A DNA stretch of 41,592 nt, taken from the IMG/VR virus record IMGVR_UViG_2874968258_000006. One strand, given 5' to 3'. This document shows positions 1 to 6,000 of this stretch, one piece after another. Within the stretch, counting starts at the first letter, position 1. Every line of letters begins with the position of its first letter. Made by a program: the position numbers. The stretch comes from a virus. Taxonomy: Duplodnaviria; Heunggongvirae; Uroviricota; Caudoviricetes.

Positions 1-3000
1 ATGTGTCAGGTATTTGGTGTATCCAGGAGCGGTTATTACAACTGGGTACAGCATGAACCCTCAGACAGAAAACAAAGTGATGAGCGGCTAAAACTGGAGA
101 TTAAGGTGGCACATATCCGCACTCGCGAAACATATGGAACCCGGCGGCTCCAGACGGAGCTGGCAGAGAATGGCATCATCGTTGGTCGTGACCGACTGGC
201 ACGTCTTCGTAAGGAGCTAAGGCTACGCTGTAAGCAGAAACGCAAGTTCAGAGCGACTACGAACTCGAACCACAATCTGCCAGTTGCGCCAAATCTGCTG
301 AACCAGACGTTCGCTCCTACAGCACCAAATCAGGTCTGGGTGGCGGACCTGACGTATGTTGCCACACAGGAGGGATGGTTGTACCTCGCTGGCATCAAAG
401 ATGTTTATACGTGCGAAATTGTCGGCTACGCCATGGGAGAGCGCATGACAAAAGAGCTGACAGGTAAAGCCCTGTTTATGGCGCTCAGGAGCCAGCGCCC
501 ACCTGCCGGGCTAATCCACCACTCTGATCGAGGTTCACAGTACTGCGCATACGATTACCGGGTCATACAGGAGCAGTCTGGTCTGAAAACATCAATGTCG
601 CGTAAAGGTAACTGTTACGACAACGCTCCGATGGAAAGCTTCTGGGGAACGCTGAAAAATGAGAGCCTGAGCCACTATCGTTTTAATAACCGGGATGAAG
701 CCATCTCAGTAATACGGGAATACATTGAGATTTTCTACAATCGTCAGCGTCGTCACTCTCGTCTGGGGAATATCTCCCCGGCAGCCTTCAGGGAAAAATA
801 TCATCAGATGGCTGCTTAAAAAAAGAACAAATGGTAGTGTCCGCTATTGCCAGTACACCTCATTCAAAGCCGAAGCTGTCAGAACGGTTCTTGAAAATCA
901 ACTTTCGATCAGTGAAGGCGCTTCCCGATTATCTCTTCCTGAAGGCACTTTAGGACAATGGGTTACCGCCGCCAGAAAAGGGCTCGGTACTCCTGGTTCC
1001 CGCACGGTGGCTGAACTGGAATCTGAAATTCTGCAACTGCGTAAGGCGTTAAATGAAGCTCGCCTTGAGCGAGATATATTAAAAAAAGCAACAGCGTATT
1101 TTGCACAGGAGTCGCTGAAAAATACGCGTTAATCGAACAATGGCGACAACAATTTCCCATTGAAGCGATGTGTCAGGTATTTGGTGTATCCAGGAGCGGT
1201 TATTACAACTGGGTACAGCATGAACCCTCAGACAGAAAACAAAGTGATGAGCGGCTAAAACTGGAGATTAAGGTGGCACATATCCGCACTCGCGAAACAT
1301 ATGGAACCCGGCGGCTCCAGACGGAGCTGGCAGAGAATGGCATCATCGTTGGTCGTGACCGACTGGCACGTCTTCGTAAGGAGCTAAGGCTACGCTGTAA
1401 GCAGAAACGCAAGTTCAGAGCGACTACGAACTCGAACCACAATCTGCCAGTTGCGCCAAATCTGCTGAACCAGACGTTCGCTCCTACAGCACCAAATCAG
1501 GTCTGGGTGGCGGACCTGACGTATGTTGCCACACAGGAGGGATGGTTGTACCTCGCTGGCATCAAAGATGTTTATACGTGCGAAATTGTCGGCTACGCCA
1601 TGGGAGAGCGCATGACAAAAGAGCTGACAGGTAAAGCCCTGTTTATGGCGCTCAGGAGCCAGCGCCCACCTGCCGGGCTAATCCACCACTCTGATCGAGG
1701 TTCACAGTACTGCGCATACGATTACCGGGTCATACAGGAGCAGTTTGGTCTGAAAACATCAATGTCGCGTAAAGGTAACTGTTACGACAACGCTCCGATG
1801 GAAAGCTTCTGGGGAACGCTGAAAAATGAGAGCCTGAGCCACTATCGTTTTAATAACCGGGATGAAGCCATCTCAGTAATACGGGAATACATTGAGATTT
1901 TCTACAATCGTCAGCGTTGTCACTCTCGTCTGGGGAATATCTCCCCGGCAGCCTTCAGGGAAAAATATCATCAGATGGCTGCTTAAAAAAAGAACAAATG
2001 GTAGTGTCCGCTATTGCCAGTACACCTCAAAAGTAATTGTTCCACAGTCATATTTTTAATTGCGCCCCGGTTAACAAGAGTCCATCCCTGTTTTTCCAGA
2101 TAAAACCGGAAAGTCTCCAGGGGACAGACCAGTGCGCCATCAGGAACGGTTTCGGTGAATTCGACATTGCCGAATTTGTCGAAGTGAACAACCAGAGTGC
2201 GACCATCACCCGGAATCATCTTGTCAGCAGGTGGGGTGTTATTCTGGCGCAGTTCGGCCTCCATGCGGTCGAACTCAGCAATGTATGCCTCTTTGAATGC
2301 GGCGGCTTTTTTGCCCGTGAAGCCCATCACCAGGAAAACGAAGCCGTTTTTGGTGATTTGGTACATTGGGAGTTTGCGCCCGGTTGAGTCGGTGTATTCG
2401 CTCGACACAAAATTGTGCTCAGTGAATTTTGCTGAACAGTCCAGATTGCGAATTTTATCCAACATTTAACGCCTTACGCAGTTGCAGAATTTCAGATTCC
2501 AGTTCAGCCACCGTGCGGGAACCAGGAGTACCGAGCCCTTTTCTGGCGGCGGTAACCCATTGTCCTAAAGTGCCTTCAGGAAGAGATAATCGGGAAGCGC
2601 CTTCACTGATCGAAAGTTGATTTTCAAGAACCGTTCTGACAGCTTCGGCTTTGAACTCTTTAGAGTAACGTTGGGTTTTTCTGCTCATTATTAGCTCCTT
2701 CTGATGCCATTCTATTTCAGGAAGGAGTGTCCGTTAAACTCAGGCTACCTCAGTCTCGTTCATTTTACTCACCTGAATGTCTTCCCAACCAACGACGTGC
2801 GCCAGCTTCGGTTTTAAACGTTTTGCTTTTGGTATACGTCATGGCGGTGAATGTGCCGTCCTGGTTGGGGAACACGCCGTACACCAGAGATTCGTTGTTG
2901 CCAAGATCGATAGTATTCATGTTGACCCCATTTCCCCTTAACGCCGGGGTAGCGGAACTGTTTGCTGAGAACACCGTGCGGTGTCTTGATGAATGAAATT

Positions 3001-6000
3001 TAGAATAACCTAAGGTGGGCGGTCAAGATTTTTGTGTAGAAAAACCTAAGTTTTTTGATGTAAAAAACACAAGTGTTTGAAAGTTTGTGCTTTTTATTAC
3101 AGGGTGTGGAGAAAAAAGGGGATTATTTGTTTGCGCTTCTTTTGCGAGCTTTGAGTAGTTCTTCAAAAAGTTTGTTGAAATTTTCAACTCGAGCACGCAT
3201 CTCTGACAACAGGGCCTTTTGCTCTGACTCAGGCAGTGCGTCGAACAGTTGAAGTAACTCTTTTTGATCTTCTGTCAGAATGGCTGGCTGATTATCCGGG
3301 ATCGGTTCGCCTGGTTGTTTATCTTCATCCCCAAAAAGAAGCCAAGTCGGTGAGCACTGAAGCGCTTGGCTCAGTGCGAATAATCTTTTCCCCGCCGGCT
3401 GTGTTTCATCTCTTTCCCATTGAGAAATTGTTACGTGAGCCACTTTGACCAGCTTACCTAATGCGGCCTGAGACAGTTTTAATTTTTTACGCCTATGTAA
3501 GAGGCGAGCACCGAAGGTTTCGTTTTTCATATTAGGGAATTCTAATTTTTCTTGACTTAGGTTTCTCTACGATCTAGTTTCCTTAGGAAAATCTAAGGAG
3601 CTCGATATGTTGAAAATTGATGCTATAGCGTTTTTTGGCAGCAAAACAAAGCTTGCCAATGCCGCAGGAGTTAGGCTGGCAAGCATTGCTGCATGGGGGG
3701 AACTGGTTCCTGAAGGTCGCGCGATGCGCCTGCAAGAGGCATCTGGCGGGGAACTTCAGTACGACCCCAAAGTTTATGACGAATATCGTAAGGCAAAACG
3801 ACCTTGGAAGGTGATTCATGAAAATCAGGCATGAGCACATCGAATCAGTGCTGTTGCCCTGGCAGCCGAAAAAGGGCAGGCGTGGGTCGCTAACGCAATT
3901 ACTGAAGAATATCTGCGGCAGGGGGGCGGCGAATTGTCTCTGGTACCAGGCAAGGACTGGAACAATCAGCAGAATATCTATCACCGTTGGTTGAAAGGTG
4001 AAACGAAAGCGCAAAGGGAAAAAATTCAGAAACTGATCCCTGCGGTTCTGGCAATTCTTCCGCGTGAGCTGCGTCACCGACTCTGTATCTTCGATACCCT
4101 GGAACGCCGTGCATTACTGGCGGCGCAGGAAGCGTTGAGTACGGCAATTGATGCGCATGATGATGCTGTCCAGGCCGTTTACCGGAAAGCACATTTCAGC
4201 GGTGGTGGGTCGCCCGGCGATTCTGTCGTAGTGCATTGATTGAAATTAATCGTGCCGGATTGTTTTGTTCGGTATCAGTTAAATGTAACGCTGCGAGCGT
4301 TACAAGGTGAAAACAAATGGCTTCAAACTGGATAAAGCTCGAGGTTATTACGCCGGATAAGCCGGAAATATTCAGGCTTGCTGAGATTCTGAATATTGAT
4401 CCAGATGCCGCATTAGGGAAGGTTATTCGCTTCTGGGCATGGGCGGATCAACAAATGATAGACGGTAATGCAGATTGTAACGCTCGCGGCGTTACAAAAA
4501 GTGCAATAGATCGCATCACTTTTATGTCTGGTTTTGCTGATGCGTTAATTCAGGTTGGATGGCTGGTCGAAAATGACGGTGGGCTTTCTCTACCTAACTT
4601 TGAACGTCATAACGGAAAAAGCTCTAAAAAAAACGGGCGGTTACAAACGAGCGAGTAACAAAAATACGCGAACTGAAACGAAAAGGTAACGCTGCCAGCG
4701 TTACACAAACGGATCAAAAAGCGTTACCAGAGGAAGAGGAAGAGGAAGAGGAAGATCTAAATACTGATCTCCCCCTCGCCAAAAACGAGCGTCTAAAAAA
4801 TTCGAGCCGGAGGCTATTGAGCTGCCCGATTGGTTGCCGGAAACACTCTGGCATGAGTGGGTCCGGTTCAGACAGGCATTGCGAAAACCGATTCGAACGG
4901 AGCAGGGCGCTAACGGGGCGATACGGGAACTGGAAAAATTCCGTCAGCAGGGTTTTACACCTGAGCAGGTGATTCGACACAGCATCGCCAATGAATACCA
5001 GGGCCTGTTCGCGCCGAAAGGTGTTCGGCCTGAGACGTTGCTCCGACAGGTTAACACCGTCTCGTTGCCGGACAGTGCGATCCCGCCAGGCTTCAGGGGG
5101 TAACGGACCATGAAAAATATTGCGACAGGCGGCGTTCTGGAACGCATCCGCCGACTGACCCCGCCACATGTAACCGCCCCATTCAGAACGGTAGCGGAGT
5201 GGCGCGAGTGGCAACTTGCTGAAGGCCAGAAACGTAGCGAGGAGATCAACCGCCTGAATCGCCAGTTGCGGGTGGAAAAAATTCTGAATCGCTCAGGCAT
5301 CCAGCCGTTGCACCGTAAATGCTCGTTTGCGAATTACCAGGTGCAGAACGACGGCCAGCGATACGCGTTAAGCCAGGCGAAATCCATCGCCGATGAACTT
5401 ATGACCGGGTGTACAAATTTTGCGTTCAGCGGAAAACCTGGTACCGGGAAGAATCACTTAGCGGCAGCTATCGGGAATCGCCTGCTGAAAGACGGTCAGA
5501 CAGTGATTGTGGTTACCGTGGCTGATGTTATGAGCGCCCTGCACGCCAGCTATGACGACGGGCAGTCAGGCGAAAAATTTTTGCGGGAGCTGTGCGAAGT
5601 GGATCTGCTGGTTCTTGATGAAATTGGCATTCAGCGCGAGACGAAAAACGAGCAGGTGGTGCTGCACCAGATTGTTGATCGCCGGACAGCGTCGATGCGC
5701 AGCGTGGGGATGCTGACAAACCTGAACTATGAGGTGATGAAAACATTGCTCGGCGAGCGGGTGATGGATCGCATGGTCATGAACGGCGGGCGCTGGGTGA
5801 ATTTTAACTGGGAGAGCTGGCGTCCGAATGTTAGCCATTCGAGGGTTGTTAAGTAGTTTCAGGAGGATTTATGGCGAAACCTTTTACTCCCGAACAGCGG
5901 GAAGAACTGAAGACGCGAATTGTGGAACTCGTGCATCAGGACGGTCGGGTCACGATTCGGCAGTTGTCAGATGAAACAGGTATCAGTCGTGCGTCTGTCG

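Follow-up and report, generated by a model that had tools for sequence, protein, structure and literature searches.

The dicA/dicC immunity switch of a defective lambdoid prophage and its IS600-bounded leftward arm

The dicA-dicC-dicB locus was reportedly described by Bejar et al. (1986/1988) in the cryptic prophage Qin of Escherichia coli K-12. In the K-12 chromosome (NC_000913.3) the genes stand in the order dicC-dicA-ydfA-ydfB-ydfC-dicF-dicB, and the motif TTAG-N6-CTAA is present at two places in the dicC-dicA interval and at one in the dicA-ydfA interval. One of these sites, the operator Oc, is bound by DicA in vivo, and binding is lost on mutation of one base in its CTAAC arm (PMC3441716). 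K-12 dicA figures on essential-gene lists as the restrainer of dicB (PMC11481867). Here we describe a related locus in a 41,592-nucleotide stretch of DNA assigned to the Caudoviricetes (IMG/VR record IMGVR_UViG_2874968258_000006), hereafter called the window, in which intact homologues of dicA, dicC and ydfA adjoin copies of the insertion sequence (IS) IS600. We consider it very likely that this region is the relic of a switch for immunity (lysogeny maintenance) in a defective Rac/Qin-like lambdoid prophage of Shigella sonnei, and that the arm cut by IS600 was one carrying rha, not dicF and dicB. The loci compared are E. coli FDAARGOS_943 (L001), a prophage of E. coli CFSAN018748 (L002), enteroinvasive E. 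coli CFSAN029787 (L003), CP032523.1 (L006), Shigella sonnei 53G (HE616528, L007), S. sonnei Lineage 1 (L008) and others designated by L-numbers only.

The switch genes and their operators

The two switch genes are divergent and separated by a 76-bp spacer, read directly. The dicA product matches the NCBIfam model NF007257 at 237.3 bits (cut-off 101) over profile positions 1-135 of 135, as well as the Pfam families HTH_3 (7.8e-14) and Phage_CI_repr. It has 82 of 137 positions identical to K-12 DicA (60%) and is 100% identical to WP_000787424.1, a protein common in many E. coli. Its partner, DicC, matches NF007282 over its full length at 153.8 bits (cut-off 130) and P22_Cro at 3.1e-13; it has 56 of 76 positions identical to K-12 DicC (74%) and carries a single S. 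sonnei-specific substitution, G67W. As for ydfA, it is the first, and now the sole intact, gene of the leftward operon. The region is an intact lambdoid immunity switch of the DicA/DicC type. The preliminary description of this DNA was right that such a switch is retained; its label 'Qin-type' is not supported, DicA being just 60% identical to that of Qin. Qin adjoins ynfP and rspB in NC_000913.3 and this prophage lies between modC on its left and pgl, ybhD, ybhJ and ybhC on its right; it is therefore not an orthologue of Qin.

Operator-like sites flank dicA on both sides, three of them in the dicA-dicC spacer and two between dicA and ydfA, in the region 2997-3049 (Table 1). Exact matches to TTAG-N6-CTAA number three in the whole 41.6-kb window (0.43 expected by chance), all of them within the 600-bp immunity region. 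Their core is that of K-12 Oc, TTGTTAGTCATAACTAACAA, and the leftward operator (OL) region can be aligned to the operator that K-12 has between dicA and ydfA. The predicted leftward promoter overlaps the OL sites, and the predicted dicC promoter overlaps the rightward, OR-like region. The palindromic operators first noticed in the spacer are thus real, with three sites in 3532-3596, and the set to the left of dicA had been overlooked. DicA of the window would bind these operators and repress dicC and ydfA. It had also been proposed that the repressor is maintained without its known targets, an idea that we abandon: DicA does not appear to be target-less, because operators survive at each of the two promoters, ahead of dicC and ydfA, and two dicB loci are annotated elsewhere in S. 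sonnei 53G.

We propose that DicA acts as a repressor of the CI/C2 type and DicC as a Cro-type counter-repressor. DicA dimers would occupy the 14-bp operators, three over the rightward dicC promoter and two over the leftward ydfA promoter. Bound DicA would keep both early operons off and probably sustain expression of its own gene, as shown for K-12 DicA. The dicA/dicC/ydfA core may still confer homo-immunity.

Whether DicA was kept by selection for an action in trans, either superinfection immunity against homo-immune phages or repression of distant dicB-bearing remnants, deserves consideration, and we find this unlikely. Across 10 S. sonnei-type assemblies whose flanks differ in IS content, the core (2753-3834) shows at most one differing position, as selection might have it; these assemblies are nevertheless near-clonal, so their identity says little about selection. 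The operator cores are common to the window and K-12, and related dicA cassettes occur in 4081 of 5426 E. coli genomes, often several per genome. Possible distant targets exist as well, since two dicB loci, at 1,750,696 (near ynfG, in the Qin neighbourhood) and at 1,961,337, appear in the RefSeq annotation of 53G that PMC13098226 used, but Table S1 of that study marks both as pseudogenes. Loss of dicF in S. sonnei Ss046 was inferred in an older survey (PMC3318445).

The 53G dicA gene (SSON53G_RS03880, 776062-776469, coordinates that match L007) is identical to that of the window. In a transposon-directed insertion-site sequencing (TraDIS) study of 53G, it received 7-9 insertions in each of 4 replicates and was scored non-essential; dicC received 4 insertions (PMC13098226). 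This speaks against a functional dicB that DicA alone holds in check and makes a trans-acting DicA less likely. We hold it improbable, in particular, that S. sonnei has retained an intact DicA for repression in trans, whether to confer immunity to incoming phages with the same operators, to silence dic-type promoters, including those of the two dicB loci, or both; if it had, a 'dead' prophage would supply a working regulatory node. The non-essentiality of dicA is what one would expect if the cargo left under this repressor does no harm. The essentiality of dicA would then depend on its cargo: unlike in K-12, where the gene is on essential-gene lists (PMC11481867), it is dispensable here.

The leftward arm and the IS600 copies

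To the left, ydfA abuts an IS600 fragment at 2752, as first described, and the tip of the left inverted repeat (IRL) of this stub, TGAGGTAGCC, lies 13 bp past the ydfA stop codon. The K-12 gene order on which the preliminary description relied is also that of NC_000913.3, and its observation that dicF and dicB are not in the window stands. The DicF model RF00039 of Rfam has no match in the window, whether the gathering threshold or E<=1 is applied; as a positive control, the same model scores the dicF of L002 at 76.7 bits. Searches for dicF by blastn gave nothing significant in the window. With K-12 and L002 DicB as tblastn queries, the best match in the window is a 21-aa stretch of an unrelated region (E=0.002), and no match was obtained in L001, L003, L004 or L006-L015. 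The entire prophage copy is visible, its left end from L006 and L007 and its right end within the window, and dicF and dicB were looked for throughout it and not found. Nor do ydfB and ydfC follow ydfA, as just 11 nt of orf67 (phrog_30817) precede IS600. We considered orf67 as a diverged ydfB and rejected this assignment, its product (MNETELKHV...) having no similarity to K-12 YdfB (MDFDTIMEK...).

What IS600 removed can be judged from relatives in which ydfA is followed by other sequences. FDAARGOS_943 has this prophage, at this site, with 99.3% identity over window positions 2750-6479 and with no IS600 at the ydfA junction. In it, ydfA is followed by orf67 (67 aa, phrog_30817), the opposite-strand orf98 (98 aa), the tail of dicF, isrK, C4, rha and ydaE. 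Rfam identifies the isrK RNA at 61.5 bits and the C4 antisense RNA at 75.7 bits. This arm contains no DicF or DicB, and its dic trace consists of the last 6 nt of dicF and 43 nt of the dicF-dicB spacer. In the Lineage 1 genome (L008), IS600 is inserted about 500 bp further out than in the window, at the equivalent of L001 position 11495, and both halves of the arm are kept, split by an IS600-bounded inversion: orf67 and orf98 lie beside ydfA, and the dicF tail, isrK, C4 and rha about 10 kb off. The intact prophage arm of L003 reads ydfA-ydfB-ydfC'-isrK-C4-rha-ydaE-recE-gam-xis-int, and dicF and dicB were not found in it.

The window itself retains a piece of such an arm. Between IS600 sequences lies an internal rha fragment that matches Pfam Phage_pRha (8.6e-22, profile positions 18-90 of 91) and is 100% identical to the rha of L008, 98.3% to that of L001 and 95.7% to that of L003. 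It does not encode a complete Rha-family regulator, since its 5' end is replaced by IS600 and its 3' end runs into IS600. Rfam finds no isrK or C4 RNA in the window even at E<=1; both are deleted together with the rha 5' end. From these comparisons, IS600 appears to have removed orf67, orf98, isrK, C4 and the 5' end of rha, and not dicF-dicB, because the nearest relatives without the junction carry the rha arm and a rha fragment persists in the window. The initial proposal that the dicF/dicB side was replaced by IS600 is thus not supported. It is unlikely that the rha fragment was brought in from another prophage by IS600 recombination, as rha lies in the same arm and on the same strand downstream of ydfA in L001, L003 and L008; the 100% identity of the L008 rha to the fragment also counters this idea.

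That initial proposal, a Qin-type prophage in which IS600 replaced ydfB-ydfC-dicF-dicB and left DicA without targets, now seems to us very improbable, and it is already largely refuted. It accounts for the IS600 adjoining ydfA and for a window without dicF and dicB, and it can draw on other strains in which the same dicA allele is joined to ydfB-ydfC-dicF-dicB arms, namely L002 and the PPompW prophages of Shiga toxin-producing E. coli (STEC). The last 6 nt of dicF and the dicF-dicB spacer kept in relatives even indicate that a more remote ancestor carried dicF. However, the homology of the window to L002/PPompW-type arms ends at window position 2761, at the ydfA stop. In L001 and L008, homology to Qin-type arms already ends at that stop codon and the genes that follow are those of the rha arm. 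Moreover, the fragment surviving beside the IS600 stub is rha and not dic, the prophage occupies the modC-pgl site and not the Qin locus, and the operators, dicC and ydfA are still there as targets.

The occurrence of one dicA allele with either a dicF-dicB arm or an isrK/C4-rha arm suggests that the immunity cassette is a mobile module subject to modular exchange. The presence of a dicA/dicC cassette is then no evidence for a former neighbouring dicF-dicB. The rha-arm prophages keep the last 6 nt of dicF and the dicF-dicB spacer with its 22-nt inverted repeat, AGTGAATTTTGTGATGCGGTGA; this tail and spacer lie at 11150-11316 in L001, 9854-10020 in L003 and 19182-19224 in L008. The isrK-C4-rha cassette begins where K-12 dicB begins, which looks like a precise cassette swap. 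The 282-aa 'Rha' open reading frame (ORF) annotated in L001 by the NCBI Prokaryotic Genome Annotation Pipeline (PGAP; 10279-11127) spans the Rfam isrK and C4 matches (10888-11076), and its annotated N-terminal 95 or so residues are probably an over-extension across an RNA-based antirepressor control region.

We therefore favour a history in which the prophage had a rha arm when IS600 arrived. The ancestral leftward operon would have comprised ydfA, orf67, (orf98), the isrK/C4 RNA, rha, ydaE, recE, gam, xis and int, with no dicF-dicB, the rha cassette already sitting at the position held by dicB in Qin-type arms. IS600 insertions and IS-associated deletions would then have cut the arm 13 bp past ydfA; the IS600 stub of 290 bp, the rha fragment of 436 bp and the two tandem IS600 copies are what they left. 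We read the dicA/dicC/ydfA core as a small relic not yet hit, and not as an orphan regulator kept for a lost target.

Several points weigh against this account. Compared with K-12 Oc, the operators have other flanks and spacers, and we infer that this DicA allele binds them; both promoters are predicted at consensus level, one by a scan and the other by eye. L001 and L008, on which the ancestral arm is based, are themselves IS-rearranged, and the rha fragment is a mosaic whose 5' 88 bp match L003 and L008, not L001. A small chance persists that a dicB further along the arm was lost earlier, though the intact L003 arm has none. Lastly, the intactness of dicA is uninformative: given 12 differences over 3727 bp relative to L001, 1.3 would be expected in the 408-bp dicA, and the probability of observing none is about 0.27, for which reason we rejected it as evidence of selection.

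As for the IS600 copies themselves, those in the window are 99.2-99.9% identical to the elements that PGAP annotates as 'IS3-like element IS600 family' and belong to that family. The pair at 1-2029 is arranged head to tail, the right inverted repeat (IRR) of the first copy (ending at 862) joining position 98 of the second. The same tandem structure is found in several S. sonnei assemblies, and it implies either an insertion of IS600 into IS600 or a deletion. At the other end of this segment, an ATG formed where rha meets IS600 starts an ORF of 160 aa, Rha' (1983-2465, minus strand), which overlaps the end of a truncated 77-aa IS600 ORF, orfA' (2455-2688, minus strand). Both are publicly annotated as genes and lie downstream of, and in the same orientation as, the predicted DicA-controlled ydfA promoter. 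That the rearrangement thereby made a new expressed product with an acquired function, transcribed from the ydfA promoter through the orfA' stub, is scarcely credible: the new ATG, the overlap with orfA', the retention of most of the pRha domain and the gene calls in several assemblies would suit it, but Rha' lacks the first 17 or so positions of that domain, its C-terminus runs into the IS600 IRR, and the fragment is wholly missing from L010 and hence dispensable.

The locus is an ordinary prophage immunity relic of a known kind, already publicly annotated, and its significance outside correct annotation is slight. It does illustrate clearly how IS600 has eroded a prophage step by step in different S. 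sonnei lineages.

Table 1. Features of the immunity region and of the adjoining operons, in window coordinates
Feature	Position	Strand	Basis and remarks
IS600, cut by window start (orfB region and IRR end)	1..862	+	99.9% identical to PGAP-annotated IS600 in L001; full copy extends left in L006
Second IS600, tandem, without first 97 bp	863..2029	+	blastn; junction ACACCTCA/TTCAAAGC read directly
rha internal fragment (Rha-family phage regulator, antirepressor-like), 436 bp	2030..2465	-	truncated at both ends; inside ORF 1983-2465
IS600 5' fragment (IS positions 1-290), inverted	2463..2752	-	blastn; 99.7% identical to PGAP-annotated IS600 copies
orf67 remnant ATGAACGAGAC (M-N-E-T), first 11 nt	2753..2763	-	compared with L001 and L008 orf67 and K-12 YdfB
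ydfA homologue (DUF1391, 51 aa)	2765-2920	-	Pfam 3.5e-28; 47/51 identical to K-12 YdfA
Leftward PL/dicBp-like promoter TTGACC-18-TAAATT, predicted	3026..2997	-	promoter scan; overlaps OL sites
Leftward (OL) operator pair, left of dicA	3000-3013 (exact), 3036-3049 (1 mismatch)	-	pattern search; region 2997-3049
dicA homologue (135 aa, CI/C2-type helix-turn-helix repressor, intact)	3123-3530	-	NF007257 'repressor DicA' and Pfam HTH_3
Rightward OR-like region, three TTAG-N6-CTAA sites	3532-3545, 3557-3570 (1 mismatch), 3583-3596	.	pattern search of dicA-dicC spacer
Rightward dicC promoter, predicted	TTGACT 3552-3557 / TAGTTT 3575-3580	+	read by eye; overlaps OR-like region
dicC homologue (75 aa, P22 Cro-type, intact)	3607-3834	+	NF007282 and Pfam P22_Cro
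ydaT / CII-like gene, pseudogene	3818..4239	+	frameshift, 1-bp deletion near 3855 vs L001
O-like replication-initiator gene, disrupted	4317..5103	+	+2, +12 and -10 bp indels vs L001
ydaV (DnaC/IstB-like ATPase) and DUF977 gene, both intact	5110..6293	+	Pfam search
Full-length IS600 (1264 bp), interrupts rightward early operon after DUF977 gene	6480..7743	-	blastn; ends TGAGGTAGCC...ACACCTCA

The prophage, its host chromosome and its flanks

To the right of the switch, two early genes have decayed. Relative to L001, dicA and ydfA show no change and dicC one substitution; ydaT and the O-like replication-initiator gene are both broken (Table 1). Their intact counterparts in L001 encode proteins matching Pfam YdaT_toxin and phrog_163 'CII-like' in the case of YdaT, and phrog_2509 in that of the O-like protein. 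Compared with FDAARGOS_943, the O-like gene carries a 12-bp GAAGAG repeat expansion at 4729-4740, beside the +2 and -10 bp indels.

The S. sonnei-type chromosome CP032523.1 matches window positions 1-10300 at 100.000% identity. The exact DicC protein with G67W is found in 10 NCBI assemblies, which include CP032523.1, S. sonnei 53G (HE616528) and eight others. Among the accessions involved, HE616528 belongs to S. sonnei 53G, CP180280 to S. sonnei 201809330 (Lineage 1) and CP179990 to S. sonnei 830292 (PMC13098226, PMC12511311).

The prophage between modC and pgl is lambdoid and riddled with IS elements. Its left flank in L006 runs modABC, int' (C-terminal 160 aa), IS600, IS600-delta, rha', IS600' and ydfA. 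In 53G, the left arm between two IS600 copies holds int-N, xis, a DUF1187 gene (with a RalA RNA match), an AAA_24 gene, gam and a recE remnant. Prophage xis and the DUF1187 gene (L007 3544-4061) have zero insertions in the 53G TraDIS table and are scored essential. The DUF1187 gene overlaps the Rfam match to the RalA antitoxin RNA (216 bits), and the lack of insertions may reflect a RalR/RalA-type toxin-antitoxin pair or merely small gene size. Late prophage genes in the window include those for the terminase (17183), the portal (19078) and a DUF2213 protein (20798).

On the right, the prophage stops past the head genes at an IS1 copy (22544-23311) that truncates it and links it to pgl of the chromosome, followed by ybhD, ybhJ and ybhC. 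A second IS1 copy (25908-26677) lies between ybhD and ybhJ, and given its position ybhH and ybhI have presumably been deleted. Within the prophage, a match to the sok antitoxin RNA (Rfam, 117 bits) at 8866-9041 (plus strand) is part of a hokD-type type I toxin-antitoxin module. One tRNA is left in the window (11397-11470), versus four in FDAARGOS_943 (Ile, Arg, Thr, Gly); the others were apparently displaced by an IS3-family element at 11476-12680, which has ORFs of 279 and 112 aa and recurs at 30829-32033. In the lysis cassette, an IS2 copy (13462-14793) has inserted at the holin gene; it is 99% identical to the IS2 of L001 and L002.

Beyond the prophage, a cluster of naRNA4 (REP-like) matches at 28846-29074 lies between ybhJ and ybhC, and sRNA-Xcc1 has an Rfam match of 68 bits at 33761-33849 (minus strand). 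Past ybhC there is a second prophage remnant (window 36764-40534), preceded by IS600 at 35549-36812. It contains a tail-fibre N-terminal gene (36764-38017) and a gene for an IpaH-family NEL E3-ligase effector (38771-40534, minus strand).

Comparison with known immunity systems

The closest described system is the dic locus of K-12 Qin (Yun et al. 2012, PMC3441716). Both loci have a divergent dicA (135 aa) and dicC (75-76 aa) with ydfA as the first leftward gene, both have TTAG-N6-CTAA operators at homologous positions on the two sides of dicA, and both proteins of the window pass the NCBIfam DicA and DicC models. Identities of 60% for DicA and 74% for DicC nevertheless indicate a different immunity allele. 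Unlike Qin, the window has three OR sites, operators with other flanks and spacers, and a modC-pgl location; and ydfB, ydfC, dicF, dicB and ydfD are absent.

Nearer in sequence are L002 and the STEC PPompW prophages (LC567822), whose immunity cassettes are 95-98% identical to that of the window; the DicA of L002 is 100% identical. In contrast to the rha arm of the window lineage, their left arm consists of ydfB-ydfC-dicF-dicB-DUF1482-exonuclease.

In its general layout, the region resembles the immC region of P22 and the immunity region of lambda (C2 or CI, Cro, OL/OR), with a divergent repressor and Cro, a tripartite OR, a multipartite OL and, downstream of cro, replication genes and the CII-like ydaT. 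Unlike in these phages, no N-like gene was identified. A further difference lies in the repressor, as DicA consists of just HTH_3 and a short C-terminal region. Because it is devoid of an S24 peptidase/RecA-cleavage domain, SOS induction by autocleavage is not expected.

The ancestral arm brings in a last comparison. In L001, L003 and L008, Rfam isrK and C4 lie directly upstream of rha, and the window keeps the rha fragment of such a module. These isrK/C4-rha modules presumably resemble the antirepressor-type c4-ant of P1/P7 and isrK-anrP of Gifsy-1.

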